Shown: positions 6,899 through 64,000, numbered from the stretch's first letter. The stretch is DNA of 64,000 nucleotides from Mustelus asterias (GCF_964213995.1 NC_135830.1:11842001-11906000); one strand, 5' to 3'. Made by a program: numbers and translations. The notes: generated from the letters alone by a model not told the origin.

Positions 6899-6920
6899 GT
6901 TCTGTTTGTGAACAGAATTC

Positions 6921-6965
6921 CCACTCACCTGACGAAGGGGCTTAGAGCCTCGAAAGCTTGTGTGG
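6921..6965 (+). ncRNA. Minimal hammerhead ribozyme motif (inverted pLTR)
   Basis: CCACTCAC-CTGACGA-AGGGGCTTAGAGCCTC-GAAAGCTT-GTGTGG. Confidence 0.7.
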
Positions 6966-13615: not shown

Positions 13616-14889
13616 AGCTTTTGCTTTGTTCTCACCATCAGCATTCATCGACAAACAGTTGCGGGTTGGCAATGGGTCCGTGAGCGTCAATAAAAAATAG
13701 CCCTCAAGTGTTACCGGCTGTACTGTTATCTGGTGTTACCAACATTATTTAATGACTATTGATTTCAAACATATTACATGTAACATTGTATATTGGCTGC
13801 CATTACACCATTTAACTGAACAATTGCAATCAAAACATGAATTTGTGGCTGAGCATTTGTTCCAATTCCATATCCCTGCTTCCATTCGTTACTGGATAGA
13901 TCATAAATCTGTCTAACCCAGGCTGAAATGTGTTCAATGATGGAGCATCTTCAATCCTCTGGCGTAGAGAATTCCCAATATTCACTACCTTTCGAGTGAA
14001 GAAATTTCTCCTAATCTCTGTGCTAAATCATCAGCGCCTTATCCTGAGATTGTGCCCCGTGTTTTAGATTCCCGGGCCAGGGACAATAATGTCTCAGCAC
14101 CCACCCTATCAAACTCATAGAATCATAGAATCCCTGCAGTTTTTCAATGCGACCTATTCTTTCTCGTTAAAACTATTGACATTTTCCAGCATTTTCTGTT
14201 TTTGATTCCGTTTCCAGCATCCTCAGAATTTGCTTTTATTCTGTCTAAAATGCGGAGATCCAAACTGCACACACTATTCCAAGTGTGGTCTCAACAAAAA
14301 CCTGAATAACTGTGTACATTTCTGCAATCAGTAACTGGATCAGAAAGATGAGATATCTGTGTCTCTTTGTACTGTCATCTCGAAACCCCATATCCTCTCA
14401 ATGCTGTGTGTCATACATTCGCTTTCCCTGCTTTCCAGGCAAAACTCAGGTTCACCAAATGCCTGTGTCCGTATCAAGCAGCTAATTAACTCTGGGAAAT
14501 CGACAGCCAGAGGGAGCTGGATGAGAGGCAGCGACATAAACAGGAAGAGAAGCGACATGATCGTGCTTGGTAAATTACTTGTGTCAGCTGCTCTCCGTGA
14601 TGAATGCCTGCCCTGTGTTGCCTTGTAAGATTCACACAAGTCACAGTGATGATTTTGGTGGGTGTTAGGAATTGGAAGTGCCACATAAGCAGCTAGTTCA
14701 TCTACTGTCGATTTCATGTTCCAGATAATAGGAATCGCTGTTTTCATTGGCTGATGCAGTCCATTGTGTTCGATCTAAACATGAACATTTAAAGGAGAAA
14801 ATTGTTTTTGGTGAATAAATAGTTTCAAATAAAAATAGAAGGCAGATGTTTCATGGCTAAATTCGTTTTCTAAGGCTTTTGCATTAACT

Positions 14890-14961
14890 TCCCTGGTGGT
14901 CGAGAGTCACGGATTCGTCGCTTTCACCGCCGCGGCCTGGGTTCGATTCCTGGTCAGGGAA
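14890..14961 (+). tRNA. tRNA-Glu(TTC), D-arm degenerate (likely pseudogene)
   Basis: TCCCTGGTGGTC...CGCTTTCACCG...GGGTTCGATTCCTGGTCAGGGAA, 72 nt; A-box altered. Confidence 0.8.
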
Positions 14962-15542
14962 TGTAGATTAATTGCTGTTCAGCAACCTTGCGTTACTTCA
15001 TGGTCAGCAGTACTCCCCTTGGAGCCAGTATTACATCTGAATTGGAAATGTTGGATACAAAGAAAATCGAGAGAGGCTGCAAAGCGTTGACGATAGAAAT
15101 GATGATACGGGTTTAAATCTGGCTGTTAATGGGGTAGATTTTATTGTTTCCATTCGCACAAATACCTCGCAGATCTGTTTCCAAATCTCCGGCTCAATGA
15201 CAAGAAAGTCTTTAATTAAATTAAACAGTAAACTCTCCGACCTCCAGTGAAGTGGAGGCAGTTTTCACTCAGAAAACAGTAACTGTGAGATTAACAGCGT
15301 TGGATGGAGAAAGACTCCGTTTGAGCGGTGACACTGCGGGAGGAATGGAGCGTTGGAGTTCAGCCAGAAAAGCAGCCAAATTTTTTTTTAAATGGCTCCC
15401 AACATGGGCTGGAACCCACGGTCCATTAACGGTGATAAGTTAATGTTGTTCAGCAGGATTACTGCAAGATGGTTTATCACAGGTTGATACGAGCACTACT
15501 CTTTGAATGCAGTGAGCTGCAATAAAATTGAATGCAGTGGAA

Positions 15543-15830: not shown

Positions 15831-15950
15831 TTTATGACAGTAGACCTGCAGAGTTTCACTGGCTGTCTTGTCTGGAGACACGACACATCTTTTTAGCCTG
15901 TCTTGATCCTCTCTCCACTCACATTGTTTTGTTTCTTAAAGACTTGATTA

Positions 15951-18900
15951 CTTGAGCAGGCTGGCAGGTAGGATAGCTGAGGAACAGTGGAGGATTTTTA
16001 AGGAGATCCTTTTCAGTTCTCAGCAAAAATATATTCCAGCAAAAAACAAGGATTGTAAGAAAAGGGAGAACCAGCCGTGGATAACGAAGGAAATAAAGGA
16101 GAGTATTAAAATAAAAACAGCTGCGTACAGAGTGGCCAAAAATAGTGGAGAAACAAGTGATTGGGAAAAATTTAAGAAACAACAAAGAGAGACTAAGAAA
16201 GTGATAAAGAAAGGAAGGATAGACTATGAAGCTAGGCTAGCAATTAATATAAAAAATGATAGTAAAAGTTTTTATAAATATATAAAAAGGAATAGAGTGG
16301 CTAGAGTGAATGTTGGACCCTTGGAGGACGAGAGGGGGGAGTTAATAGTGGGAAATTAGGATATGGCTGAGTCTTTAAATACGTTTTTTGTGTCGGTCTT
16401 CACGGTGGAGGACACAAATAGTTTGCCAAATATTAACGATAGAGGGTTGGCAGCAGGAGAAATACTTAATACGATTAATGTTACCAGAGAGGCAGTGCTC
16501 GGTAGACTAATGGGACTGAAGGTGGACAAGTCCCCGGGTCCGGATGGAATGCATCCCAGGGTATTGAAAGAAATGTCAGAGGTAATAGTGGATGCGTTAG
16601 TGATTATTTATCAAAACTCGTTGCATTCTGGGGTAGTGCCGGTTGATTGGAAAACGGCTAATGTTACGCCGCTGTTTAAAAAAGGAAGGAGACAAAAGGC
16701 AGGTAACTATAGGCCGGTCAGCTTAACGTCTGTAGTAGGGAAAATGCTGGAATCCATTATTAAAGAGGAGATAGCAGGGCATCTGGATAGAAATGGTTCG
16801 ATCAATCAGACGCAGCATGGATTCATGAGGGGAAAGTCGTGCTTGACGAACATGTTGGATTTTTATGAAGATGTGACTAGGGCGGTTGATGGAGGAGAAC
16901 CGGTGGATGCGGTGTTTTTGGATTTCCAAAAGGCGTTTGATAAGGTACCCCATAAAAGGCTGCTGAAGAAGATTAGGGCACATGGAGTTGGGGGTAGTGT
17001 GTTAAAGTGGATTGGGGACTGGCTATCCGACAGGAAGCAAAGAGTCGGAATAAATGGGTGTTTTTCCGGTTGGAGGAAGGTAACTAGTGGCGTGCCGCAG
17101 GGATCGGTACTTGGGCCGCAACTGTTTACCATTTATATAGATGATCTGGAGGAGGGGACGGAGTGTAGGGTAACGAAGTTTGCAGACGACACAAAGATAA
17201 GTGGAAAAGTGAATCGTGTGGAGGACGGAGAAGATCTGCAGAGAGATTTGGACAGGCTGAGTGAGTGGGCGAGGATATGGCAAATGGAGTATAACGTTGA
17301 GAAATGCGAGGTTATACACTTTGGAGGAAATAATAACAAATGGGATTACTATCTCAATGGAAACAAATTAAAACATGCTACCGTGCAAAGGGACCTGGGG
17401 GTCCTTGTGCATGAGAATAATGTAAGGAGGAGCTACACGATAAATGGAAGAACCATAAAGGGTGTAGAGACGCAGAGGGACCTGGGTGTGCAAGTCCACA
17501 GATCTTTGAAGGTGACGTCACAGGTGGAGAAGGTGGTGAAGAAGGCATATGGCATGCTTGCCTTTATAGGACGGGGCATAGAGTGTAAAAGTTGGGGTCT
17601 GATGTTGCAGATGTATAGAACGTTGGTTCGGCCGCATTTGGAATACTGCGTCCAGTTCTGGTCGCCACACTACCAGAAGGACGTGGAGGCTTTGGAGAGA
17701 GTACAGAGGAGGTTTACCAGGATGTTGCCTGGTATGGAGGGGCTTGGTTATGAGGAGAGATTGGGGAAACTGGGGTTGTTCTCCTTGGAAAGACGGAGGA
17801 TGAGGGGAGACTTAACAGAGGTGTATAAAATTATGAAAGGCATAGATAGGGTAAACGGTGGGAAGCTTTTCCCCGGGTCGGTGGTGACGTTCACGAGGCG
17901 TCATAGGTTCAAGGTGAAGGAGGGGAGGTTTAACACAAATATCAGAAGGACATATTTCACACAGAGGGTCGTGGGGGCGTGGAATGTGTTGCCGGGCAAG
18001 GTGGTGGAGGCGGACACACTGGGAACGTTTAAGACTTATCTCGACAGCTATATGAACGGAGTGGGAATGGAGGGATACAAAAGAGTGGTCTAGTTTGAAC
18101 CAGGGAGCGGCGCGGGCTAATTGTTCCTTGTTTCTCGTGGAAGTGGAAATGACTAGGGTTGGGAAGCATTTTCCGATCAGGGCCATTGTGATCTCCTGGA
18201 CTCGTTTCGATCGCCTCAGGGGGTCGGAGAGGAATTTCCCAGATTTTTTTTTCCCCATATTGGCCCTGGGGTTTTTCACTCTGGGTTTTCGCCTCTCCCT
18301 GGAGATCACATGGTCTGGAATGGGGGGGTGGGGGTGAGTTAATAGGTTGTAATGAACAAAGCATCGTAGCTGTGGGGGACAGCTCGGTGGATAGGATATT
18401 GGTATGTAGATAGGCTGGAAAATTGGGCGGGGATCCTGGATTCAGGATTCAATCCTGGACCGGGGAGCGGCGCGGGCTTGGAGGGCCGAAGGGCCTGTTC
18501 CTGTGCTGTATTGTTCTTTAAAAAGACGCAAAAGCCCAGTCTGCAGGTACAACAGGTGATCAAGAAGGCAAATGGGATGTTGGCCTATATTGCGAGGGGG
18601 ATAGAATATAAAAGCAGGGATGTCTTGATGCACCTGTACAGGGCATTGGTGAGGCCGCAGCTGGAATACTGTGTGCAGTATTGGTCCCCTTATATGAGGA
18701 AGGATATATTGGCATTGGAGGGAGTGCAGAGAAGGTTCACCAGGTTGATACCGGAGATGAGGGGCTTGGATTATGAGGAGAGGCTGAGGAGATTGGGTTT
18801 GTACTCGTTGGAGTTTAGAAGGATGAGGGGGGATCTTATGGAGACTTATAAGATAATGCGGGGGCTGGATAGGGTGGAGGCGGAGAGATTCTTTCCACTT

Positions 18901-21440: not shown

Positions 21441-22592
21441 TTTCCAAACGGTTTTATTTCAAAACGATTCAGATTTCAGAATTATTCTCGTTTCTCACGA
21501 AACATTAATTGAGCCGTTGATTTTTTTGCGGCATTGAAGACGGAAATCACTCAGTAAAGAGATTAAAAGGGAAGGTCTGTGATAGAGAGCAAAACAGGCT
21601 GGATTGAATGACACAAGGAATGATGGACAAGGGCAACAGTGGTTGCTTTTCATTATTTTTAAACTTTACTGCTTTCCTGGATGAATTCCAGCTCTCCATT
21701 CCTCCGGCGGTATCTCAGCTCAAACTGAGACTTTATCTCTTCAGCTTTGTTAGTCTCACAGTTACTGCTTTCTGCATGAAAACTGCTTGCAATCAGTCGA
21801 AGTCAAATAGTTTATTGCTAAATTCAGTGAGACGTTTCTTGTCATTCAGCACGATATTTTTATCCAGAAGTGAGTAATATTTCTGTCAATGCAAACGGTT
21901 AAATCAGACCAATTACCACTCAGATTGTACCTTGTCTACATCGTCAGCGCTTTGCATCCTCTCACTGTCTTTCATTATCCGTATTTGTTCTCGACCTGTT
22001 GCCCATGTGACATTTCCAATTCGGAAGCAAAACTACAAATCTCACTCCACTGATTCTGGCAGAGCTGCTTTCGAGTACAAAGATTACAGGTTTGTTTATC
22101 AAAACATTTAAATTTTAATTCATCGAAGCCAGTCTGCGACGCTGAAAGTACTGAACCCTAACCACTGGATCACCAGGATCTCATTTTCCTGATCCTCCCA
22201 AAGCCTTACTACAGGAATGTGCACAGTGCCAATTATCCACATTCACACACTCCTTCCTGTCTGTTAACTCATGAAATTGTTTATATTTTCACGGTGACTT
22301 TCAGTGTAACGAAAGCAGAGCTCTGATGAGCTGATGTTGTTCAGCATTTTTAACACAACGGGTTCATAAATGTTCGATGCAAGCATTGCCCTTTGAACAT
22401 GGTGAGCTACAGTGAAATTTAATGCGCTTGAAGCTAGCTTACTTATTTTTACATGAGGAACCAGCAAGGGCAATTTAAATATGAATTGCTGTAGGTAATT
22501 GACGGGATTGTGGCATGGGACTGATATTTTTCCCTGCTGTTCAAATTGGCGCAGGTATTGAGTGAACATTTTCAGGCTGCTATTGTGTGCTG

Positions 22593-22664
22593 GGTTCCGT
22601 GGTGTAATGGTGAGCGCTCTGGACTCTAAATCCAGCGACCTGAGTTTTAATCTCGGCGCCACCT
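22593..22664 (+). tRNA. tRNA-Gln body with a CTA (amber-reading) anticodon, probably a pseudogene
   Basis: GGTTCCGTGGTGTAATGGTGAGCGCTCTGGACT-CTA-AATCCAG...; T-loop TTTTAAT and two acceptor-stem mismatches. Confidence 0.8.
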
Positions 22665-23298
22665 TACTTTAATTTGAAGATGATTGATATGCTGAAGGGC
22701 GTTTAATTTTCTCACAAAGTACGAAAAGAGAGGACAATTTATCAGCCAGTTCAACTGCTATAGCAATGCACATTGCTGAGCCTCATTGTCTCGATATAAT
22801 CTCCCTCGGTCTCTCTGACTGTTTTTATTACGTTGACCTCTTTTGCTCTTTGCTCTCTCTCTATTCTCTCGCTCTCTGTGTGTAACCAAGTTTCACTGGA
22901 TTGATTCCTGCGTTTCTCCTGGGAGGAGAGATTCAGTGGGATGAGTCTGTTCGCTCTGGAGTTAGAATAATCAGAGGTGATCTTGTTGAAATGTCTGAAA
23001 CTGGGAAACAGTTTAACAGTGTTCGTGCTGACAGGCTGCTCCCCCCAGCTTTAACGAGATTACTTTGGACAAAAATAAATATGTAAGAGGAGTTTGCAAT
23101 GTTTGGGAGAGGTGAGGCTAAGAAGTGGAAGATGTGAATGATGTAAAATTGATGATTGAGTGCAACGCATGGTAACCTTCGGGATTCTGTAGATCGATAC
23201 ATTGTAAACTTTGAAATCAGAACAAGCTGAGACAGCAGATGGCAAACACATATTTGCCTCCATGCATTTTTGGTCATAGAAAAGGCATTAGCTCTCGT

Positions 23299-23371
23299 GC
23301 CTGGCTAGCTCAGTCGGTAGAGCATGAGACTCTTAATCTCAGGGCCATGGGTTTGAGCCCCACGTTGGGCG
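23299..23371 (+). tRNA. tRNA-Lys(CTT), probably pseudogenised
   Basis: 73 nt; T-loop TTTGA (C56T) damages the B box; other transition changes. Confidence 0.85.
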
Positions 23372-24275
23372 TCGTTGCTTTAAACTTTGCCCCATTTTTG
23401 GGTGAATTCCAGCTCACCGTCCCTCCAGAAATGTCACCGCTCATACTCACTTTTTCGCGATCTTATTTTGTTTATCTCATCGTTGTGTGTTTGTGACTGA
23501 AAACTGCCTCCAGTTTTGCACTGAAATCAGCGAAAGATTTTTTTCTCATTTAGTACGAGATTTAAACCCAGACCTGGGAGATTGTGTCAGTGGGAACAAT
23601 AATCATCTCCATTGTCACTCAATTACTCCAGCCTTCCACCCTATTACATTGGTCTTTCCTCCTCTCCCTCTCTATTTTCCTTGACTCTGTACTTGTTTAT
23701 AAACCATTACATCCCTCATCTCTTCCAGTTTGGGTAAAAGGTCAGCAACCTGAATCATTCACTTTCTTTCCCTCTCCAGGGAAGCTGCTGAAGCTGATGA
23801 GTGCTTCCAACATTTTCTGTTTTGAGGTGGGATTTGCAGCAACTGCAGTTCTTAGTTTTGGATCACAGTGGATCACTTTTCTCTGACTTAATCTTACCTG
23901 TTTAAACAGGTAAAGGGCTGAGGTTTTAAATACTAAGACTCCAGAATCTGGTACCCAGTTTGACATGAAATGGAACAAAATGATAATTTATCATTTCATA
24001 AAATACTGCCAATGCAATATGTATTTCGTTGTAAACGCCAGCATTTCTGGCCATCCCTATTTCCCCTTGAACTGAGTATTTTGCTGGGCCATTTCAGAGG
24101 GAAGTTAAGAGTCAATCACGTTGCTTTGCGTCTGGAGTCCCATGGAGGCCAAACAGGGGAAGAGTGGCAGATTTCTTTCTGCAAAAAGTCCAGATGTGTT
24201 TTCATGACAATCAGAAAACAAAGCTTCATTACTGAGACTAGCTTTCACTTCCGTTTCAGTTCTAGACTGTGATGT

Positions 24276-32645: not shown

Positions 32646-35600
32646 AAACATAGAACATAGAGCAGTACAGCAGAGAACAGGCCCTTCGGCCCACGATGTT
32701 GTGCCGAGCTTTATCTGAAACCAAGATCAAGCTATCCCACTCCCTATCATCCTGGTGTGCTCCATGTGCCTATCCAATAACCGCTTACATGTTCCTAAAG
32801 TGTCTGACTCCACTATCACTGCAGGCAGTCCATTCCACACCCCAACCACTCTCGGCATAAAGAACCAACCTCTGATATCCTTCCTGTATCTCCCACCACG
32901 AACACTATAGTTATGCCCCCTTGTAATAGCTCCATCCACCCGAGGAAATAGTCTTTGAACGTTCACTCTATCTATCCCCTTCATCATTTTATAAACCTCT
33001 ATTAAGTCTCCTCTCAGCCTCCTCCGCTCCAGAGAGAACAGCCCGAGCTCCCTCAACCTTTCCGCATAAGACCTACACTCCAAACCAGGCAGCATCCTGG
33101 TAAATCTCCTCTGCACTCTTTCCAGCACTTCCACATCCTTCTTATAGTGAGGTGACCAGAACTGCACACAATATTCCAAATGTGGTCTCACCAAGGTCCT
33201 GTACAGTTGCAGCATAACCCCACGGCTCTTAAACTCCAACCCCCTGTTAATAAAAGCTAACACACTATTGGCCTTCTTCACAGCTCTATCCACTTGAGTG
33301 GCAACCTTTAGAGATCGGTGGATATGAACCCCAAGATCTCTCTGTTCCTCCACAGTCTTCAGAACCCTACCTTTGACCCTGTAATCCACATTTAAATTAG
33401 TCCTACCAAAATGAATCACCTCACATTTATCAGGGTTAAATTCCATTTGCCATTTTTCAGCCCAGCTTTGCATCCTATCTATGTCTCTTTGCAGCCAACA
33501 ACATCCCTCCACCTCATCCACTAGTCCACCAATCTTGGTGTCATCAGCAAATTTACTGATCCACCCTTCAGCCCCCTCCTCTAAGTCATTAATAAAAATC
33601 AGAAAGAGCAGAGGACCAAGCACTGATCCCTGCGGCACTCCGCTAGCAACCTGCCTCCAATACGAACATTTTCCATCGACCACCACCCTCTGTCTTCGAT
33701 CAGACAGCCAGTTACCTATCCAATCGGCCAACTTTCCCTCTATCCCACACCTCCTCACTTTCATCATAAGCCCACCATGGGGGACTTTATCAAACGTCTT
33801 ACTAAATTCCATGTATATGACATCAACTGCCCTACCTTCATCAACACACTTAGTTACCTCCTCAAAAAATTCTATCAAATTTGTGAGGCACGACTTGCCC
33901 TTCACGAATCCGTGCTGACTATCCCGGATTAATCCGCATCTTTCTAAATGGTCGTAAATCCCATCTCTAAGGACCTTTTCCATCAATTTACCAACCACCG
34001 AAGTAAGACTAACCGGTCTATAATTACCAGGGTCATTTCTATTCCCTTTCTTAAACAGAGGAACAACATTCGCCATTCTCCAGTCCTCTGGCACCATCCC
34101 CGTGGACAGCGAGGACTCAAAGATCAAAGCCAAAGGCTCTGCAATCTCATCCCTTGCCTCCCAAGGAATCCTAGGATACATTTAATCAGGCCCAGGGGAC
34201 TTATCGACCTTCAGTTTATTCAAAAGTGCCAGGACATCCTCCCTCCGAACATCTATTTCCTCCAGCCAATTAGCCTGTAACACCTTCTCTTCCTCAAAAA
34301 CATGGCCCCTCTCCTTGGTGAACACTGAAGAAAAGTATTCATTCATCACCTCGCCTATCTCGACTGACTCCATACACAAGTTCCCACTACTGTCCTTGAC
34401 CGGCCCTAACCTCACCCTGGTCATTCTTTTATTCCTCACATAAGAGTAAAACGCCTTGGGTTTTCCTTGATCCGACCCGCCAAGGACTTCTCGTGTCCCC
34501 TCCTAGCTCTCCTCAGCCCCTTTTTCAGCTCATTCCTTGCTAACTTGTAACCCTCAATCGAGCCATCTGAACCTTGTTTCCTCATCCCTACATAAGCTTC
34601 CCTCTTCCTTTTCACAAGACATTCCACCTCTTTCGTGAACCATGGTTCCCTCACTCGGCCATTTCCTCCCTGCCTGACAGCGACATACCTAACAAGGACA
34701 TCCAGTATTTGTTCCTTGAAAAAGTTCCACTTTTCATTAGTTCTTTCTCTGACAGTTTCTGTTCCCAACTTATGCCCCCTAATTCTTGCCTAATCGCATC
34801 ATAATTACCTCTCCCCCAATTGTAAACCTTGCCCTGCCGTACGGCCCTATCCCTCTCCATTGCAATAACAAAAGACACCGAATTGTGGTCACTATCTCGA
34901 AAGTGCTCTCCCACAACCAAATCTAACACTTGGCCCGGTTCATTTCCCAGTACCAAATCCAATGTGGCCTCATCTCTTGTCGGCCTATCCAGATATTGTG
35001 TCAGGAAACCCTCCTGCACACCCTGCACAAAAACTGCCCCATCCGAACTATTTGACCTACAAAGTCTCCAATCAATATTTGGAAAGTTAAAGTCCCCCAT
35101 GACAACTACCCTGTGGCCCCCACACATATCCATAATCTGCTTAGCAATTTCTTCCTCCACATCTCTATTACTATTTGGGGGCCTATAGTAATCTCCTAAC
35201 AACATGACCGCTCCTTTCCTATTTCTAACCTCAGCCCATATTACCTCAATGTGCAGATGCCCCTCGAAGTGCCTTTCCGCAGCCGTTAAACTATCCTTGA
35301 TTAACAATGCCACTCCTCCACCTCTTTTACCAGCTTCCCTACACTTAGTGAAACATCTATACCTCGGAATGTCCAACAACCATTCCTGTCCTTGTTCTAC
35401 CCACGTCTCCGTAATGGCCACAACATCGTAGTCCCAAGTAGCAATCCACGCCCCAAGTTCATCTACCTTGTTCCGGATGCTCCTTGCATTGAAGTAGACA
35501 CACTTCAACCCACCTTCCTGTCTACCGGTACCCACCCTTGACCCTGGTACCTTCCGCAATACCTCACCACCCTCACTGAATTCTGGACTACAACTCCTTT

Positions 35601-37157
35601 TCCCACTTCCCTGACAAATTAGTTTAAAACCCCCTGAAGAGCCGTAACACATTTCCCTCCTCGGATATTGGTGCCCCTCTGGTTCAGGTGCACCCCGTCC
35701 TGTTTGTACAGGTCCCACCTTCCCCAGAATGTGTTCCAATTATCCACGTATCTGAAACCCTCCCTCCTACACCATCCCTGCAACCACATGTTTAACTGCA
35801 CTCTCTCCCTGTTCCTCAACTCGCTATCACGTGGCACCGGCAACGTACCAGAGATGACCACATGTTTTGTCTTGGCTCTCAGCTTCCAGCCCAGCTCCAG
35901 AAATTCCTGCTTTAAAATACCCGTCCCTTCGCTTACCTATGTCATTGGTACCAATGTGTACCACGACTTGTGACTGTTTCCCCTCCCCCTTCAGAATCTG
36001 GAAAACACGGTCTGAGACTTCACGGACCTTGGCATCCGGTAGGCAACATACCATCCGTGAGTCTCTTTTGCTGCCACAGAACCTCCTATCTATCCCTCTA
36101 ACTAACGAGTCCCCAATAACTATTGCCCTCCCGCTCTGCCCCTTACCCTCCCGAGCCACAGAGACGGACACAGTGCTGGGGATCCTCTCACTGCGGCTCA
36201 CCACTGGTATGTCATCCCCCTCAACCGTATCCAAAACGGAATACTTGTTGCTCAGGGGAACGACCACCGGGGATCCCTGCACGGACTGCTTCCTCCCAGC
36301 CCCTCTCACCGTCACCCATCTGTTTTCATTCCTCGGAGTAACTGTATTCCTAAAGCTTCTGTCTATGGCCACCTCTGCGTCCCTAATGATCCTAAGTTCA
36401 TCCAACTCCAGCTCCAGTTCCCTAACACGGTTTTGGAGGAGCTGCAGATGGGTGCACTTCCCACAGGTGTAATCAGCAGGGACACTGTCGTCGTACCTCA
36501 CCTGAAACATAGTGCAAGAGGAACATAGCACTGCCTGCACACCCATCCCCTCTAGATACCTTGCCAGTATCAGGTAGAAAGTGCAAAAATGAATTCAAAC
36601 TCACCCCTGCTCGCCCTTTCTGCCTAAGCCCTGTGAGCCAAAGCCTTATAGCTCACACTCTGCTTCCCACTCACTCCCCGCCCGCTCCCGATGCTGCCCG
36701 CTGTATACTGCAGCCTATCTTTTATACTTCGCGCGCTTAAAAAACCCTTCCCAGACTCCTTAGCAGCCCACTTCCAGTTTTCACTTGAAACTTAAAATTC
36801 TACTGCAAAAGTAAAGGCCAAAAAAAAACACGCACGAGCTGACAAATTAAATAAATAAACAATTCAATTAATCTCTCACCAGCACTGCTGCCTCCAATCA
36901 CTCCCTCTCAGCTTGCTCCAGTGGAACAATGAGGGGGAACCTCCCAGGTAACCGACTTTTAAAGTTAAAATAAAAACCCTTCCCAGACTCCTTAGCAGCC
37001 CACTTCCAGTTTTCACTTTAAACTTAAAATTCTACTGCAAAAGTAAAGGCCAAAAAAAACCACACACTAGCTGACTAATTAAATAAATAAACAATTCAAT
37101 TCATCTCTCACCAGCACTACTGCCTCCAATCACTCCCTCTCAGCTTGCTCCAGTGGA
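32646..37157 (-). mobile_element. Near full-length CR1 LINE, inactivated by frameshifts and stops
   Basis: ORF1, then APE endonuclease + RT in pieces (34651-35628, 34436-34768, 34182-34439, 32727-34181); tail TTCTATG; duplicated 5' region. Confidence 0.95.
35619..36546 (-). pseudogene. CR1 ORF1 (Zn-finger/coiled coil + SGNH esterase), one frameshift near 35900
   Basis: CxxC..CxxC, heptad region, IVIGDS, VHIGTNDI, DGVHLN. Confidence 0.88.
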
Positions 37158-39999: not shown

Positions 40000-40910
40000 T
40001 TAATTTTTCCACTGTTTAAACCCACCAGTGAGCATGGTGAAGGGACAGATCAGCAATTTCTTCAGCTCCTCTCTGAACTTGTTCTGGGCCACTGCATAGA
40101 TGAAGACATTGTTGCAGGAACTGAGTGACTGGAACATGTTAGTTGCCTCTTGAAGGATATAGTCTGGACTATTGAAATCCAGGCTGGTGAGGTAGCCCGC
40201 ACTTGCGAGCCGTGCATAGAGGAAATGTCCGACATAGGTAGCCCACAGGAGAAGAAAACTGAGCGAGATGGCGAAGAGCAGGACAATGGACTTCCTGCGG
40301 TTTTCCATCTCCGGATCTCCCTGGTTCTCGTTGCCCCGGAGTCTCCTGCGGGCACTGCTGGCCGCTAAGATGTGTCTTACAGTCAGGGCGTTGAGTAGCA
40401 GAATGAGGAGGAACGGAAGAAGTGGGGTTAAGATTTTGTCCAGCCAGTCATAGGCCAGCCAGGCTGGAGCTGTGTAGAAGGTGACCTTCATGTCGCAGAA
40501 CCAGGGCACCCCATCCAGGATGTACAAGGGCTGGTAGACAAAGTAGTAAGGGAAGTTTTCCACACAGCTGAGGGCACAGACTATCCCTATAACCCGCAAT
40601 GCTGTTTTGTCGGCGCAGTATCTGGTCTTCAGGCTGTGACAGCAGATGGCCACGAAACGGTCGATGGTGAAAGCCACAGTCAGCCAAACTGAACCATCCC
40701 GAGTCGCAAAGGCCAGCAAGGCACTGACTCTACATGCGGGGGTGGTGGATAGGACACTGTTAGAAAAGTAGATGCGTCCGATCCGATTGAGGATGACGGC
40801 AGTGATGATGACCAAGAAATCACTCACCGCTATCGCCACCAGGTAGTAGGTGATGCACCGGGAGAGTCCACACCGCTCTCGGCATAAGATTACAATCGCC
40901 AATAAGTTCG
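40000..40910 (-). CDS. GPR139/GPR142-like class A GPCR, exon 2
   Basis: Acceptor CTCTCACAG; ANLLAIVIL..CGLSRCITYYLVAIAVSD, SVWLTVAFTIDRFVAICC, DPEMENRRKSIVLL; open to the stop. Confidence 0.9.
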
Positions 40911-41645
40911 CTGTGAGAGGTAAAAAGAGTGAAAAGCTACAGGGCAGAATCCAAAAACCAATTACTGACTCATCGAATCAGTTACCGAATCCGTCCTTAT
41001 CTTACCTTTTGCCACCCCCAGACTCTAGTAGTTGGCATTCGTTCAATATCCAATGCTGAACTAAACATGTGTCATTGTAGAAAGTATTGCAATCTGAGCC
41101 CGCCACAAACTCTGTTTCCTGGTCAGCTCGCGATTAGTTACCCAACTTCAGCTCATTCCAAACAATTGTTACTGATGCCGTTATTCACAACAGGCCCAGT
41201 ACATCAATCAAGTCTATGCTCGCTAATTTTTTATTGATTCCCAGTCCAGCAGTGTCTCGTTTTTAATAATCTCATCCTCCTCATCTTTAAATATCTCCAT
41301 AGTCTCGTCATTCCAGGTCCCTGCAGCTTCCTGCAGCCAACTGAGTTCACAGTTTACCTCCAACTCTGTCCCCTTGTGTGTCCCTGATGTTTATCCAGCC
41401 TTTGGCAGTAGTTACAGCTTTAGCTGTCGAGGCCCTATTATCTGGAACTTCCGCTATCAACGGTTGTTTCTCGCCATCCCTCTTTAGGACGTTCATAATT
41501 CTTTGATCAAATTTTGTGTGAACTATCTACTTATGTCCTTCGGTTTTAAATGTCTTTGTGAAAGTTCTCCCCATACGTACAGCAGTGGCTGAAGAAACAA
41601 GAGCAGCTTTACCTTTTCCATCTGCAATCACAGATGATTAATAAT

Positions 41646-41951: not shown

Positions 41952-42092
41952 AAATGTTGACCTTGTCACGGACACCCACAAAAATATCCAAAATAAAAAT
42001 CAAATGTAGAAAATCTATCAGCACAAGAAAAACCTGCATAGCAGATTTAAACTCTTGATTATCCATTCATCCCTTTGAAACCTTTATATTCA

Positions 42093-44080
42093 ACACGGAT
42101 TCATGAAGGGTCAGTCTTGCCTCACAAATTTGATTGAATTCTTTCAAGAGGTAGCTACGTGTGTAGATGAAAGTAGAGCAGTTGATGTCACATACATGGA
42201 TTTTAGTAAGGCGTTTGGTCAGGTCCCCCATGGTTGGCACATGAAGAAAGTAAGGAGGTGTGGGATGGAGGGAAATTTGGCCGATTGGATTACTAACTGG
42301 CTATCTCATAGGAGTGGAGATGCCGGCGTTGGACTGGGGTAAACACAGTAAGAAGTTTAACAACACCAGCTTAAAGTCCAACAGGTTTATTTGTAGCAAA
42401 AGCCACACAAGCTTTTGGAGCCCCAAGCCACTTCTTCAGGTGAGTGGGAATTCTGTTCACAAACAGGGCATATAATGGTGCCCTGTTGATGAATTAACAC
42501 TGCTTGACAATCACCAGGCAAGACTGTTCTCTTCCTGTTGGGGAGCACTTCAGCGGTCGCGGGCATTCGGCCTCTGATATTCGGGTAAGCGTTCTCCAAG
42601 GCGGCCTTCACGACACACGACGGCACAGAGTCGCTGAGCAGAAACTGATAGCCAAGTTCCACACACATGAGGACGGCCTCAACTGGGATATTGGGTTCAT
42701 GTCACACGATTTGTAATCCCCACAGCTTGCCGGGACCTGCAGAGTCTCACTGTCTGGAGACAATACACATCTCTTTAGCCTGTCTTGATGTTCTCTCCAC
42801 TCACATTGTTTATATCTTAAAGACTGGATTAGCTGTAAGTATTCGCAATCCAACCATTATTCATGTAAATTGAGTTTGTGTCTTTACATGCCCTGTTTGT
42901 GAACAGAATTCCCACTCACTTGAAGAAGGGGCTTGGGACTCCGAAAGCTTGTGTGGCTTTTGCTGCCAAATAAACCTGTTGGACTTTAACCTGCTGTTGT
43001 TAAACATCTTACTGTATCTCATAGAAGACAGAGGGTCGTGGTGGATGGAAAATTTTCAGACTGGAGACCAGTTACCAGCGGTGTCCCACAGGGATACAAC
43101 AGTACTGGGTCCTCTGCTATTTGTGTTTTTTTATCAATGACTTGGAGGAGGGGGCTGAAGGGTGGATCAGTAAATTTCCTGATGACACCAAGATTGGTGG
43201 AGTAGTGCATGAGGTGGAGGGCTGTTGTAGGCTGCAAAGAGACATTGATAGGATGCAGAGCTGGGCCGAAAAATGGCAGATGGAGTTTAACCCTGATAAG
43301 TGCGAGGTGATTCATTTTGGTTGGACAAATTTGAATGCGGATTACAGGGTCAACGGTCGGGTTCTGAGGAATGTGGAGCAACAGAGATCTTGGGGTTCAT
43401 ATCCACAGATCTCTGAAGGTTACCACGCAAGTGGTTAGAGCCGTGAAGAAGGCCTATAGTGCGTTTGCATTTATTAACAGGGGATTTGAGTTTTCAGAGC
43501 TGTGGGGTTATGCTGCAACTGTACAGGACCTTGGTGAGACCACATTTGGAATATTGTGTGCAGTTCTGGCCACTTCACTATTAGAAGGATGTGGAAGCAT
43601 TGGAGAGAATGCAAAGGAGATATACCAGGATGCTGCATGGTTTGCAGCGTAAGTCTTATGAGGAAAGATTGAGGGTGCGAGGGCTTTTCTCTTTAGAGCG
43701 GAGGAGGATGAGAGCCGACTTAATAGAGGTTTATAAGATGATGAGAGGGATAGATAGAGTGGACGTACAGAGACTATTTCCTCGGGTGGATGTAGCTGTT
43801 ACTAGGCGGCATGACTGTAAGGTTCATGGTGGGAGATGTAGGAGGGATGTCCGGGGTAGGTTCTTTACTCAGAGAGTGGTTGTGGTGTGGAATGGACTGC
43901 CTGCCGTGATCGTGGAGTCAGACACTTTCGGAACTTGCAAGCAGTTATTGGATAGGCACACGGAGCACACCAGAATGATAGGGAGTGGGATAGCTTGATC
44001 TTGGTTTTGGTCAAAGCTCGGCACAACATCGACGGCCGAAGGGCCTGTACTGTGCTGTACTGTTCTGTGTTTCTATGTTT
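42093..44080 (+). mobile_element. 5'-truncated CR1 interrupted by a PLE
   Basis: HGFMKGQSCLTNL...WLSH|RRQRVVVDG; C-terminus RMIGSGIA as in the 32.7-kb element. Confidence 0.9.
42312..43014. mobile_element. PLE fragment with inverted pLTRs
   Basis: 42312-42473 is a minus-strand tail; 42505-43014 is a plus-strand GIY-YIG C-terminus + pLTR; TSD TATCTCATAG (42302-42311, 43015-43024). Confidence 0.9.
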
Positions 44081-46109: not shown

Positions 46110-47225
46110 AGAAGATGTTAAACATCAGTGTGACTGAAAAGCGAGTAAGAGTGATCCAGTGATCTGACTCTGGAAAGAGCTTTAACCAGTTACACAGGCT
46201 GAAAATAATCACACCATTCACAGCGACGAGAAACTGTACACGTGTTCTGTGTGTGGACGAGGCTTAAACTGATCATGCAACCTGGTGAGGCACATGGACA
46301 TCAGCACCATGGAAAAACAATGGAAATGTGAGGACTGTGGGAAATGATGCAGTTACATTTCCCTGCTGGAAAGCCATTGCCGCAGTCACACTGGAGAGAG
46401 GCCATTCACCTGCTCTATGTGTGGGGAGGGATTTATTCAGTCAGCTGGGCTTTGGTCTCAAAAGCAGATTCACACTGAGGAAGAAACATTCATCTGTACT
46501 TCCTGTGGGAAGAGATTCAGACACTCTTCAGCACTCACTGTGCACCAAAGCACTCAAACTGTGGAGAGGCCTTTCAATTATTGCGTGTGTGGGAAGGAAT
46601 TCACTCAGTCATTCCACCTGCTGTCGCACCAGGGAATTTATGCTGGGAGAGGCCATTTGCCTGCCCCGAGTATCTGAAGGGATTGAGTGGGTCATCCCGC
46701 TTACTGTCACACCAGAGAGTTCACATGGAGGAGCAACCATTCAGCTGCACTGGCTACGGAAAGAGTTTCAGACAGGCATCCTCTCTTGTTGCACACCAGC
46801 GAAATCACACTGGACAGAGACCGTTTACTTGCTTTGTGTTTGGAAAAGATTCACAGTTTCACCAACCCTGCTGAGACACCAGCGAATTCACACTGAAGAG
46901 AAGACATTCAGCTGTTTTGACTGTGGAAAGAATTTCAGGCAGTCATCCAACCTCACTGCTCACCGACACACACACTGCAGAGACCATTCACATGCTCCGT
47001 GTGCAGGAAGGGATTCAATCGGTCATCCAGCCTCTCTGCTCACCAGCGGGTTCACAGAGAGAGAGGCCGTTCACTTGCTCTGTGTTTGGAAAGGGATTCG
47101 CAAATTCTTTCAATTTGCTGGCTCACCAACATACACACACTAAGAGGGCATTCAACTGTTCTGTGTGTGAGAAGGGATTCACTCAGTCTGAATGGCTCCT
47201 AAGACATCAACAGGTTCATAAGTGA
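46110..47225 (+). pseudogene. C2H2 Kruppel-type zinc-finger pseudogene
   Basis: Repeated C..CGK.F.....L..HQR.HT(G)E(R/K)PF units spread over three frames, with stops and lost Cys/His. Confidence 0.88.
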
Positions 47226-59636: not shown

Positions 59637-60216
59637 TGCTCGGGCTGCAGTAGAGTGTGACAGTTGGTGTCTCACTGAGGGAGTGCTGCTCGGGCTGCAG
59701 TAGAGAGTGACAGTTGGTGTCTCACTGTGGGAGTGCTGCTCGGGCTGCAGTGGAGAGTGACAGTTGGTGTCTCACTGTGGGAGTGCTGCTCGGGCTGCAG
59801 TAGAGAGTGACAGTTGGTGTCTCACTGTGGGAGTGCTGCTCGGGCTGCAGTAGAGTGTGACAGTTGGTGTCTCACTGTGGGAGTGCTGCTCGGGCTGCAG
59901 TGGAGAGTGACAGTTGGTGTCTCACTGTGGGAGTGCTGCTCGGGCTGCAGTAGAGTGTGACAGTTGGTGTCTCACTGAGGGAGTGCTGCTCGGGCTGCAG
60001 TGGAGAGTGACAGTTGGTGTCTCACTGTGGGAGTGCTGCTCGGGCTGCAGTGGAGAGTGACAGTTGGTATCTCACTGTGGGAGTGCTGCTCGGGCTGCAG
60101 TGGAGAGTGACAGTTGGTATCTCACTGTGGGAGTGCTGCTCGGGCTGCAGTGGAGAGTGACAGTTGGTGTCTCAGTGAGGGAGTGCTGCTCGGGCTGCAG
60201 TAGAGTGTGACAGTTG
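59637..60216 (+). repeat. 50-bp tandem monomer array (~11.6 copies) at the CR1 5' end
   Basis: CGGGCTGCAG recurs exactly every 50 nt from 59641 to 60191. Confidence 0.95.
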
Positions 60217-60261
60217 GGGAAGTGTGGGGAAGTTTTTTGTTTTCTTTTTTTCTTGCTGGTA

Positions 60262-61191
60262 ATGGCTTCAGGGATGGCAGTTCAGGCAGTATGCTGCATC
60301 TCCTGTGGGATGTATGTGGTGAGGAAATCCAGTAGTGTTTCAGGAGATTTTAGTTGTAAGAAGTGCATTAGATTGCAGCTTCTGGAGGAGCGTGTAAAGG
60401 AGCTGGAGGGGGAGGTAGAGGAACTCCGCATAATTCGGGAGGCGGAGGTGGAAGTTGATAGGAGTTATAGAGAAATAGTAACTCCTAGAAATGAGGCTTG
60501 GGTCAATGCCAGGAGGAGGGGTAAGAAGCAATCGGGAAGACAATCCCCTGGGGCGGTTCCCCTCCATAATAGGTTTTCGGTGCTGGAGGCTACAGTTGAG
60601 GAGGAATCAACTGAGCATAGAGAGCAGATCTCTGGGGGTGAGCCGAGTGAGAAAGCTCAGGTGGTTAGGGGCTGTAAAAGACTGGGCCTTGTGATTGGGG
60701 ACTCCACAATTAAGGAGACAGATAGGAGGGTCGGAACTAAAGGTAGGGACTCAGGGTTGGTGTGTTGCCTACCAGGGGCTGGGGTCCGGGATGTGTCTGA
60801 CAGGGTATTCAGGACTCTTAGGGGGGAGGGAGATAAACCACAAGTTATTGTACATGTGGGGACACACGACATAGGGAAGATAGGGGAAGGGGATATTAGG
60901 CAGGGATTTATGGAGTTGGGGTGGAAACTAAAGGCCAAGACTGACAGAGTGGTTATCTCTGGACTCTTGCCTGTACCACGGGATAGTTTAGAGAGGAATA
61001 GGGAGAGGGAAGGTTTGAATTCATGGCTGAGGGGATGGTGCAGGAGGGAGGGGTTCAGGTACTTAAGCAATTGGGGCTCGTACTGGGGAAGGTGTGACCT
61101 CTATGAGAAGGATGGTCTACACCTTAATCAGAAGGGGACCAATATCCTGGGGGGTAAATTTGCTAAGGCCATGCAGGGAGGTTTAAACTGA
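60262..61191 (+). CDS. CR1 ORF1p (Zn-finger, coiled coil, SGNH esterase), intact
   Basis: MASGMAVQAVCCISC..CKKC, LVIGDS, VHVGTHDI, DGLHLN. Confidence 0.92.
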   Translation: MASGMAVQAVCCISCGMYVVRKSSSVSGDFSCKKCIRLQLLEERVKELEGEVEELRIIREAEVEVDRSYREIVTPRNEAWVNARRRGKKQSGRQSPGAVPLHNRFSVLEATVEEESTEHREQISGGEPSEKAQVVRGCKRLGLVIGDSTIKETDRRVGTKGRDSGLVCCLPGAGVRDVSDRVFRTLRGEGDKPQVIVHVGTHDIGKIGEGDIRQGFMELGWKLKAKTDRVVISGLLPVPRDSLERNREREGLNSWLRGWCRREGFRYLSNWGSYWGRCDLYEKDGLHLNQKGTNILGGKFAKAMQGGLN

Positions 61192-61242
61192 TTCGGGGGG
61201 GGGGGAGGGATCCTGAGTAGTGGGGCTGAAAGTGAGGGATGC

Positions 61243-64000
61243 ATGGATGGGGACTGCAATGCACGGCATTGCAGAGGTGGGGTGGAGCAGGGTTTGAAAT
61301 GTGTATACTTCAATGCCAGGAGTATTCGCAATAAAGTGGGTGAACTTGCAGCGTGGATCAGTACCTGGGACTTCGATGTTGTGGCTATTTCAGAGACATG
61401 GATAGAGCAGGGGCAGGAATGGATGCTGCAGGTCCCGGGGTTCAAATGTTTTAGTCGAAGTAGGGAAGGAGGTAGAAGAGGGGGAGGGGTAGCATTATTG
61501 GTCAGAGATTGTATCACAGTGTCAGAGAGGAGGTTTGATGAGGACTTATCTGTTGAGGTAGTATGGGCGGAGATTAGAAATAGGAGAGGAGAGGTCACCC
61601 TGTTGGGAGTCTTTTATAGACCTCCTAAAAGTTCTAGAGAGGTTGAGGAAAGGATTGCGGAGTCAATCCTGCTTAGGAGTGAAAGTAATAGGGCAATTGT
61701 TATGGGGGATTTTAACTTGACTAATATTGACTGGAATTGTTATAGCTCTAGCTCGTTAGAGGGGTCAGTTTTTGTTCAAAGCGTGCAGGAAGGTTTTTTG
61801 ACTCAGTATGTAGACAGGCCAACTAGAGGTGAGGCTATATTGGATCTGGTGCTGGGAAATGAGCCAGACCAGGTGCTAGACTTGGAAGTTGGTGTGCATT
61901 TTGGTGATAGTGACCACAATTCGGTTACGTTCACCTTAGTGATGGAAAGGGATAGGCATGAACCTCGGGCCAATGGTTTTAGCTGGGGGAAGGGTAATTA
62001 TGAGGCTATTAGGAGAGAATTAGGAAACATAGGTTGGACTAGGAGATTACAGGGACTGGGAACGTCCGACATGTGGAGTTTTTTCAAGGAGCAGCTACTG
62101 CGAGTCTGTGATAGGTATGTCCCTGTCAGGCAAGGAGGAATTGGTAGGGCTAGGGAACCGTGGTGCACCAAAAAAGTTTCTTTGTTGGTTAAAAAGAAAA
62201 AGGAGGCTTATGTTCGGATGAGACGTGAGCACTCGGGTAGTGCACTAGAAAGCTTTAGATTGGCTAAGAGGGAGTTGAAGAGCGAGCTTAGAAGGGCTAA
62301 AAGGGGACATGAGAAGACTTTGGCGGATAGGGTTAAAGAGAATCCTAAGGCGTTCTATAGGTATGTCAAGAACAGAAGGTTGGTTAGGGCAAGTTTAGGG
62401 CCAGTTATAGATGGCAGAGGGAAGTTATGTGTGGAACCGGAGGAGATTGGTGAAGCATTGAACCAATATTTCTCTTCGGTGTTCACGCAAGGGGACATGA
62501 ATATAGCTGAGGAGGACACTGGGTTGCAAGGGAGTAGAATAGACAGTATTACAGTTGATAAGGAGGATGTGCAGGATATTCTGGAGGGTCTGAAAATAGA
62601 TAAATCCCCTGGTCCGGATGGGATTTATCCAAGGATTCTCTGGGAGGCAAGAGAAGTGATTGCAGAGCCTCTGGCTCTGATCTTCAGGTCGTCGTTGGCC
62701 TCTGGTATAGTACCAGAAGATTGGAGGTTAGCGAATGTTGTCCCATTGTTTAAGAAGGGGAACAGAGACTTCCCCGGGAATTATAGACCGGTGAGTCTCA
62801 CTTCTGTTGTCGGCAAGATGTTGGAAAAAATTATAAGGGATAGGATTTATAGTTATTTGGAGAGTAATGAATTGATAGGTGATAGTCAGCATGGTTTTGT
62901 GGCAGGTAGGTCGTGCCTTACTAACCTTATTGAGTTTTTTGAGAAAGTGACCAAGGAGGTGGATGGGGGCAAGGCAGTGGACGTGGTATATATGGATTTT
63001 AGTAAGGCGTTTGATAAGGTTCACCATGGTAGGCTTCTGCAGAAAATGCAGATGTATGGGATTGGGGGTGATCTAGGAAATTGGATCAGGAATTGGCTAG
63101 CGGATAGGAAACAGAGGGTGGTGGTTGATAGTAAATATTCATCATGGAGTGCGGTTACAAGTGGTGTACCTCAGGGATCTGTTTTGGGGCCACTGCTGTT
63201 CGTAATATTTATTAATGATCTGGATGAGGGTATAGTTGGGTGGATTAGCAAATTTGCTGATGACACCAAAGTCGGTGGTGTGGTAGACAGTGAGGAAGGG
63301 TGTAGTAGTTTGCAGGAAGACTTAGACAGGTTGCAAAGTTGGGCCGAGAGGTGGCGGATGGAGTTTAATGCGGAGAAGTGTGAGGTAATTCACTTTGGTA
63401 GGAATAACAGATGTGTTGAGTATAGGGCTAACGGGAGGACTTTGAATAGTGTGGAGGAGCAGAGGGATCTAGGTGTATGTGTGCATAGATCCCTGAAAGT
63501 TGGGAATCAAGTAGATAAGGTTGTTAAGAAGGCATATGGTGTCTTGGCGTTTATTGGTAGGGGGATTGAATTTAGGAGTCGTAGCGTTATGTTGCAACTG
63601 TACACAACTCTGGTGCGGCCGCACTTGGAGTACTGTGTGCAGTTCTGGTCCCCACATTACAGGAAGGATGTGGAGGCTTTGGAGAGGGTGCAGAGGAGGT
63701 TTACCAGGATGTTGCCTGGTATGGAGGGGAGATCCTATGAGGAGAGGCTGAGGGATTTGGGATTGTTTTCGCTGGAAAGGCGGCGGCTAAGAGGGGATCT
63801 TATTGAAACATATAAGATGATTAGAGGTTTAGATAGGGTGGATAGTGATAGCCTTTTTCCTCTGATGGAGAAATCCAGCACGAGGGGGCATGGCTTTAAA
63901 TTGAGGGGGGGTAGTTATAGAACCGATGTCAGGGGTAGGTTCTTTACCCAGAGGGTGGTGAGGGATTGGAATGCCCTGCCAGCATCAGTAGTAAATGCGC
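61243..64000 (+). CDS. CR1 ORF2p (APE endonuclease + RT), open to the window end; true start uncertain
   Basis: YFNARS, SETW, GDFN, SDHN, KSPGPDG, QGSVLGP, KFADDTK and FFTQRVV all in one frame; no closed ORF reported in that frame, implying no internal stop. Confidence 0.9.
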   Translation, partial: MDGDCNARHCRGGVEQGLKCVYFNARSIRNKVGELAAWISTWDFDVVAISETWIEQGQEWMLQVPGFKCFSRSREGGRRGGGVALLVRDCITVSERRFDEDLSVEVVWAEIRNRRGEVTLLGVFYRPPKSSREVEERIAESILLRSESNRAIVMGDFNLTNIDWNCYSSSSLEGSVFVQSVQEGFLTQYVDRPTRGEAILDLVLGNEPDQVLDLEVGVHFGDSDHNSVTFTLVMERDRHEPRANGFSWGKGNYEAIRRELGNIGWTRRLQGLGTSDMWSFFKEQLLRVCDRYVPVRQGGIGRAREPWCTKKVSLLVKKKKEAYVRMRREHSGSALESFRLAKRELKSELRRAKRGHEKTLADRVKENPKAFYRYVKNRRLVRASLGPVIDGRGKLCVEPEEIGEALNQYFSSVFTQGDMNIAEEDTGLQGSRIDSITVDKEDVQDILEGLKIDKSPGPDGIYPRILWEAREVIAEPLALIFRSSLASGIVPEDWRLANVVPLFKKGNRDFPGNYRPVSLTSVVGKMLEKIIRDRIYSYLESNELIGDSQHGFVAGRSCLTNLIEFFEKVTKEVDGGKAVDVVYMDFSKAFDKVHHGRLLQKMQMYGIGGDLGNWIRNWLADRKQRVVVDSKYSSWSAVTSGVPQGSVLGPLLFVIFINDLDEGIVGWISKFADDTKVGGVVDSEEGCSSLQEDLDRLQSWAERWRMEFNAEKCEVIHFGRNNRCVEYRANGRTLNSVEEQRDLGVCVHRSLKVGNQVDKVVKKAYGVLAFIGRGIEFRSRSVMLQLYTTLVRPHLEYCVQFWSPHYRKDVEALERVQRRFTRMLPGMEGRSYEERLRDLGLFSLERRRLRGDLIETYKMIRGLDRVDSDSLFPLMEKSSTRGHGFKLRGGSYRTDVRGRFFTQRVVRDWNALPASVVNA

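Follow-up and report, generated by a model that had tools for sequence, protein, structure and literature searches.

CR1 elements are common vertebrate retrotransposons, and esterase-type CR1 elements are the dominant long interspersed elements (LINEs) in many vertebrates. They lack long terminal repeats (non-LTR) and combine an APE endonuclease with an esterase encoded by open reading frame 1 (ORF1). PMC3894237 and PMC2881922 treat the way in which LINEs translate ORF2 as unsettled, the cases worked out so far being ones of reinitiation. Among other non-LTR elements, TRE5-A and TRE3-A of Dictyostelium need a -1 frameshift for ORF2, as stated in a figure legend of a review (PMC5911963). The present study examined 64,000 nt of the Mustelus asterias genome (NC_135830.1:11842001-11906000; hereafter the window), in which two CR1-type LINEs, named copies A and B, have an ORF1-ORF2 junction, the other copies being 5'-truncated.

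In both copies ORF1 ends with the heptamer U_UUA_AAC, immediately followed by the stop codon. This conserved heptamer is probably a programmed -1 frameshift site, which would yield ORF1p together with a minor ORF1-ORF2 fusion. Its sequence matches a viral -1 frameshift site, the canonical 3' structure is lacking, and the junction appears to be a real and ancient recoding candidate. An earlier note on this DNA had proposed that CR1 ORF2 may be made as such a fusion; the proposal is supported by the retention of the heptamer and by the lack of a conserved ATG, with reservations concerning the frame of copy B and the missing classical 3' stimulator.

The ORF1-ORF2 junctions of copies A and B

Both copies appear to belong to the CR1 clade, judging by the likeness of their junctions to rows labelled LINE/CR1 and by the ORF1 tree, and the closest named relatives of ORF1 come from sharks and rays. 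The ORF1 esterase matches Pfam Lipase_GDSL_2 (E 5e-7, slightly below the curated cut-off) and PDB 4C1B (E 2e-21), while ORF2 carries PF03372, PF14529 and PF00078, corresponding to an APE endonuclease followed by a reverse transcriptase (RT). A domain search of the window detected no protease domain that could cleave a fusion. Copy A occupies the minus strand, from about 37,200 to 32,700, with the following features:

36740..37157, minus strand: tandem duplication in the 5' untranslated region (UTR), 232-bp unit, 1.8 copies
35619..36546, minus strand: ORF1, with Cys motifs, a coiled-coil-like stretch and the SGNH esterase; frameshift near 35,920
35650..35652, minus strand: -1-frame ATG, placed 8 codons 5' of the heptamer
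35622..35628, minus strand: heptamer U_UUA_AAC, the final two ORF1 codons (Leu-Asn)
35619..35621, minus strand: ORF1 stop TAA, abutting the heptamer
35602..35611, minus strand: G-rich tract beginning 10 nt 3' of the heptamer, candidate stimulator
35509..35621, minus strand: linker, open in the -1 frame and without Met
32727..35508, minus strand: ORF2 (APE endonuclease and RT), starting in the -1 frame; two frameshifts, near 34,750 and 34,500, and one stop, at 34184

The ORF1 of copy A ends GGG GTT TTA AAC TAA, and reading the minus strand bore out the claim of the earlier note that a heptamer at 35628-35622, phased X XXY YYZ, precedes TAA. Its further claim, that the -1 frame runs to the endonuclease without Met, also held: the frame reads FKLICQG...GLKCVYFNARS across a 42-codon linker, the endonuclease lies 135 nt from the heptamer, and the earliest ORF2-frame ATG 3' of the heptamer is found at 35205 (codon 142), within the endonuclease. 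By shuffling, the probability that the linker is open by chance was 0.056. The ATG upstream in the -1 frame is likely a copy-specific mutation; the codons there read K-C in copy A and K-F in copy B and close homologues. The G-rich tract is a weaker version of the G tract of relatives, and copy A is decayed in both ORFs at the positions listed. Copy B lies on the plus strand, starting at about 59,600 and reaching the end of the window:

59637..60217, plus strand: tandem array in the 5' UTR, 50-bp unit, 11.6 copies, 96% matches
60262..61191, plus strand: ORF1, intact, 309 aa, SGNH esterase (the PDB 4C1B match, E 2e-21)
61182..61188, plus strand: heptamer U_UUA_AAC, phased, then TGA (61189-61191)
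61195..61205, plus strand: G11 run, one base over the register of copy A and relatives
61243..61245, plus strand: ORF2-frame ATG in the linker, before the endonuclease; not in copy A
61192..63999, plus strand: ORF2, open over 936 codons as far as the edge of the window, with APE from 61294 and RT after it

Within the 310 codons of copy B ORF1, the terminal heptamer is the sole phased canonical one, and 127 nt separate it from the endonuclease. The -1 frame closes after FKLIRGGGRDPE, 12 codons on, and ORF2 as assembled lies in frame 0 because the G11 run is one base longer, the pairwise alignment of A and B placing the single extra base in that run. Copy B probably carries one extra G in the homopolymer, arising from mutation or from an assembly error. 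The earlier note had described the divergent copy at 61 kb as having the same phased heptamer before its ORF1 stop; the heptamer is indeed there on the plus strand, and the -1 geometry is not, ORF2 being in frame 0 as assembled. The stop contexts, TGATT in copy B and TAATT in copy A, are both devoid of the UAAUG of stop-start coupling.

Both ORF1-bearing copies have tandem 5' UTR units; such 5' repeat units are mentioned for ORF1-less elements in part of PMC13343379. Further 5'-truncated CR1 copies without a junction were located at 15943-18012 (plus strand) and 56005-57712 (minus strand), and at 43017-44080 and 42086-42309 (both plus strand), the latter two being 85-87% identical to copy A.

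The silent sites of copies A and B are near saturation, with identity at 89 of 223 four-fold sites. Counting the heptamer codons, TTA is common to both copies at 3 of the 75 Leu that they share, and AAC at 2 of the 27 Asn; their sharing of the heptamer codons is more than chance. These are minority codons in the elements (TTA in 16% of Leu, AAC in 23% of Asn); together with the preceding T their joint expectation is about 1%, and every junction seen uses them. Two copies prove little, and the evidence lies in family conservation.

Conservation of the heptamer across the family

Relatives of ORF1 (n = 187) were gathered, one source search contributing the best 150 of 1,592. Rows were dropped when the D-x-x-H block was unaligned or unrecognisable (n = 50) or when the end fell outside 22-40 residues after the block (n = 12), which left 125. 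Among these rows, which are related by descent, the terminal tripeptide could be encoded by X XXY YYZ in 96 of 125, against 192 of 2801 internal tripeptides (6.9%); the proportion was 86/115 for unique tails and 42/67 after thinning to <65% tail identity. Compatible tripeptides positioned 1-7 residues before the stop occurred in 0-3 of the 125, compared with the 96 at the stop itself. The compatible ends are LN, GN, KN or GF, which is what the four eukaryotic -1 sites most prone to slippage encode.

The residue preceding the ending follows the same codon logic. LN needs a U-ending codon before it, and E, Q, K, M or W stands there in 1 of 81 rows despite 23 changes on the tree, the corresponding numbers at the next three positions from that residue being 29, 23 and 14 of 81; the residue before GN, where a G-ending codon is required, is Q in 10 of 13. 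The last residue, N309, shows at least 90% invariance, comparable to the catalytic S148, D284 and H287, and the stretch from D-x-x-H to the end measures 26 aa in 60 of the 96 compatible rows, within a range of 22-39 aa. Named carriers of LN comprise six sharks and rays, a swallow, snapping turtles, a tortoise, two lizards and a snake, and a teleost L2-like clade (Astyanax and Misgurnus among its members; mostly with the DGLHP motif of PDB 4C1B) shows compatible ends in 0 of 6.

Some of the rows call for separate mention. In six distant ORF1s (P0096, P0117, P0126, P0149, P0169 and P0176) FF or GF lies a single residue ahead of the stop and would suit U- or G-type heptamers one codon earlier. 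P0010 carries the label of a Pseudomonas aeruginosa SGNH hydrolase, shares 58% identity with the present CR1 ORF1 and ends GLN, likely reflecting elasmobranch contamination of a bacterial assembly. P0027, annotated in Pristis as 40S ribosomal protein S24 isoform X2, is a CR1 ORF1 and likely a misannotation or an exonisation.

At the DNA level, consensus rows were taken from the supplement of PMC13343379, with the first 400 bases of each row covered. The 23 matches of TTTAAACTA comprised 16 CR1 junctions (one row starting at the heptamer), one Crack-labelled junction, two CR1 5' UTRs and four elsewhere in L2/Rex1. Adding one TGA row, TTTAAAC followed by a stop occurs at the junction in 17 CR1 rows with 11 species prefixes, taken here to stand for alligator, crocodile, bearded dragon, bullfrog, coelacanth, bowfin, elephant shark, stingray, sawfish, catshark and dogfish. 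The stop varies among TAA, TAG and TGA, and two further CR1 rows have the heptamer printed without a stop. The synonymous variants TTAAATTAG, TTGAACTAG and CTAAACTAG gave 8 matches over the same 400 bases, 0 of them in CR1 rows. An endonuclease-anchored search returned five CR1 rows, two with the full heptamer, one starting inside it and two starting downstream; an esterase-anchored search found the heptamer in 10 of 10, its anchors being drawn from rows seen before. By eye, a run of at least four G starts no more than 13 nt after the heptamer in 14 of the 17 rows. The rows of ScyCan_CR1-1b and ScyCan_CR1-14 start inside the heptamer, a hint of 5' truncation or of a subfamily boundary at the junction.

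Gene models lend further support. P0031 (Hypanus) runs REG-FKL-NLQGAGI on to YLNARS, passing from the esterase straight into the endonuclease, P0066 (Chrysemys turtle) likewise has FKL there, and in P0191 the endonuclease is in frame with QGDGN. As to whether the -1 frame is open from the heptamer, the outcome is mixed: it is open in copy A, P0031, P0191 and two of six consensus rows read by eye, and closed in copy B as assembled. Searches for DNA relatives in GTDB genomes gave 119 pattern matches with 0 confirmed, and none in plasmids and phages. A search for longer fused proteins yielded two matches, neither an ORF1-ORF2 fusion, which is weak evidence, and the ten matches for ORF2 N-terminal homologues have predicted internal starts, mostly short of the junction. 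Within the supplement of PMC4316615, as far as it was covered, matches fell solely in the 3' part of ORF2.

At the level of sequence, the candidate site is conserved across jawed vertebrates, the heptamer being kept in DNA from sharks to reptiles and the ORF1 of one bird also ending LN. Two findings that the earlier note had named as contrary to its proposal did not emerge: synonymous loss of the heptamer was not seen in CR1 rows, within the first 400 bases of rows found by motif, and no conserved ATG precedes the endonuclease, copy A having none and UAAUG occurring in 3 of 17 consensus rows.

Translation of ORF2 and competing explanations

Under programmed -1 frameshifting, most ribosomes would stop at the end of ORF1 and release ORF1p, and a minority would slip back one base to produce a fusion of ORF1, linker, endonuclease and RT. 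The tRNA-Leu and tRNA-Asn would re-pair on UUU and AAA, the predicted junction peptide of copy A would read GVLN followed by LICQGSG, and F-K, although encoded in the -1 frame, would accordingly be absent from the product. The amount of ORF1p relative to RT would be fixed as it is for retroviral Gag and Gag-Pol, and the predicted CR1 layout is that of a structural ORF first, an RT ORF in a shifted frame and a low proportion of RT. More speculatively, the pause could come from the abutting stop and the 3' G tract, acting as a G-quadruplex or a protein site, with no pseudoknot; the tract may be an RNA element, or it may just reflect Gly-x-Gly coding in a G-rich strand. The wider proposal of a CR1 frameshift fusion older than the shark/bony-vertebrate split, with exchange in remote lineages among the four strongest slippery heptamers and pseudoknot-free stimulation by abutting stop and G tract, is tentative and, taken as a whole, doubtful.

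Several observations weigh against frameshifting, beginning with the 3' region. The coronavirus site uses a pseudoknot. In copies A and B, no stable hairpin or stem begins 4-12 nt 3' of the heptamer and no pseudoknot was found 3' of it, leaving the canonical 3' structure absent; of the stimulator that the earlier note suggested seeking 5-9 nt downstream, only the shared G tract came to light. Local folding energies are weaker than those of 52-93% of element windows. In a long-range duplex scan the best partners differ between A and B and no shared one stands out, a weaker shared partner lying near +1,400 nt (-16.6 and -19.4 kcal/mol). The G4Hunter score ranks in the top 1% in copy B, where it is inflated by the homopolymer, and is unremarkable in copy A (top 7-43%). 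Over the 80 nt after the heptamer C occurs 7 times in A and 10 times in B, and an Rfam scan of the window returned tRNAs only and no frameshift family. The lack of a folded stimulator indicates an unusual one.

The remaining adverse points concern frame, frequency and sampling. The only intact copy in the window, copy B, has ORF2 in frame 0 behind TGA as assembled. TTTAAAC is enriched window-wide (31 matches against 12.1 expected), so its mere presence means little, and the DNA search was guided by the motif. Of the six consensus rows tried by eye, two carry the -1 frame into the endonuclease and four do not, a weak reading since the rows visibly drop bases; P0195 links another frame to the endonuclease. 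Incompatible ends were found in 29 of 125 homologues (25 of 67 when thinned), some of them probably decayed copies. Just four changes among LN, GN, KN and GF occur on the tree, and the LN-versus-GN contrast is not significant in an independent-contrast test, with one to two independent pairs.

Termination-reinitiation would make ORF2 a separate protein, through a SART1-type UAAUG or an L1-type AUG-independent restart, with the conserved letters serving the pause or restart. It has been described for SART1 and L1 (parts of PMC2881922, PMC3894237 and PMC5009743), and it would suit the -1-frame AUG that UAAUG supplies in three of the 17 rows (scored by eye, and itself adverse to frameshifting), the linker ATG of copy B and the varied linker positions at which predicted ORF2 homologues begin. 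UAAUG is, however, missing from 14 of 17 rows and from both window copies, and reinitiation does not account for a triple-triple heptamer locked in frame 5' of the stop, nor for ORF1s whose ends suit other shifty heptamers. As the sole explanation it is unlikely, and it could coexist with frameshifting. For copy B and its lineage, ORF2 might instead be reached by UGA readthrough in frame 0 or from the linker AUG, the heptamer being a relic there; neither ORF is broken, and ORF2 follows the TGA in frame 0. Such an account is quite improbable, as the frame difference maps to one G11 homopolymer, the flanks agree in the -1 register with copy A, P0031 (QGAGI) and shark rows (QGDGN, QGDGI), and the stop varies among TAA, TAG and TGA.

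The two other explanations leave ORF2 translation aside. If Leu-Asn were kept for the protein, as a helix end, degron or binding site, the heptamer would be a by-product, in keeping with the near invariance of N309 and the 26-aa spacing in 60 of 96 compatible rows; the choice of codons is nevertheless unexplained (TTA at 16%, AAC at 23%, about 1% jointly with T), the ending stays while the distance ranges over 22-39 aa, and L swaps with the unlike residues G and K, all of which makes this very unlikely. A DNA or RNA signal apart from decoding, such as a processing, packaging or RT-pause site, would fit the two consensus rows that start inside the heptamer and the enrichment of the 7-mer in the window. 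The letters are locked to the reading frame and the stop, and the ends of distant relatives fit different heptamers, rendering a non-decoding signal extremely improbable. Programmed -1 frameshifting is the reading favoured here.

Neighbouring features and comparison with known systems

Elsewhere in the window, a 528-aa open frame at 5408-6994 (minus strand) with RT and GIY-YIG matches is likely a Penelope-like element. At 40000-40977 (minus strand) lies a single-exon ORF for a rhodopsin-family seven-transmembrane receptor, 325 aa from stop to stop and with no obvious N-terminal Met, and at 46289-47143 (plus strand) the remnant of a C2H2 zinc-finger gene, apparently frameshifted. Four tRNA-like sequences on the plus strand (2526-2601, 14889-14962, 22592-22665 and 23298-23373; two Lys, one Glu and one with a CTA anticodon) are possibly heads of short interspersed elements or pseudogenes.

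No report of a CR1 slippery site or of CR1 frameshifting was found in the open-access literature searched; CR1 descriptions of the 1990s, Repbase reports and bioRxiv supplements may hold an earlier remark. In the excerpts considered, 'CR1' does not occur in PMC5009743, nor 'frameshift' or 'slippery' in PMC13343379. Should the proposal be true, LINEs would gain a strategy like that of Gag and Gag-Pol, the real ORF2 protein would be a fusion of about 1,250-1,300 aa (309 aa of ORF1 and more than 936 ORF2 codons) in which a membrane-binding esterase is tethered to the RT, and both the annotation of CR1 and its rebuilding for retrotransposition assays would change. Under the wider and doubtful proposal above, it would also be the first LINE frameshift known to be stimulated naturally by a G-quadruplex or a protein; as of 2016, natural G-quadruplex-stimulated frameshifting was not known, according to the cited part of PMC5009743.

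Among known systems, the ORF1p of ZfL2-1 (PDB 4C1B; the section cited from PMC3905857) has the same SGNH esterase, while the teleost clade sharing its DGLHP motif differs from CR1 in lacking heptamer-compatible ends. The ORF1a-1b junction of coronaviruses, exemplified by infectious bronchitis virus (site given in an extract of PMC5009743), has the same heptamer U_UUA_AAC in the same phasing, with the polymerase in the -1 frame as in copy A; unlike it, the CR1 junction has no 3' hairpin or pseudoknot that could be found, its 0-frame stop abuts the heptamer and its host is a nuclear retrotransposon. TRE5-A and TRE3-A are non-LTR elements that resemble the proposed CR1 case in needing a -1 frameshift for ORF2, and differ in being amoebal and tRNA-gene-targeting, the legend cited above giving no heptamer. 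SART1 and mammalian L1 share with CR1 a bicistronic LINE RNA in which ORF2 depends on ORF1 translation, with UAAUG in a minority of CR1 rows as well; in contrast to their free ORF2p, a fusion is predicted for CR1, whose conserved signal precedes the stop on its 5' side.

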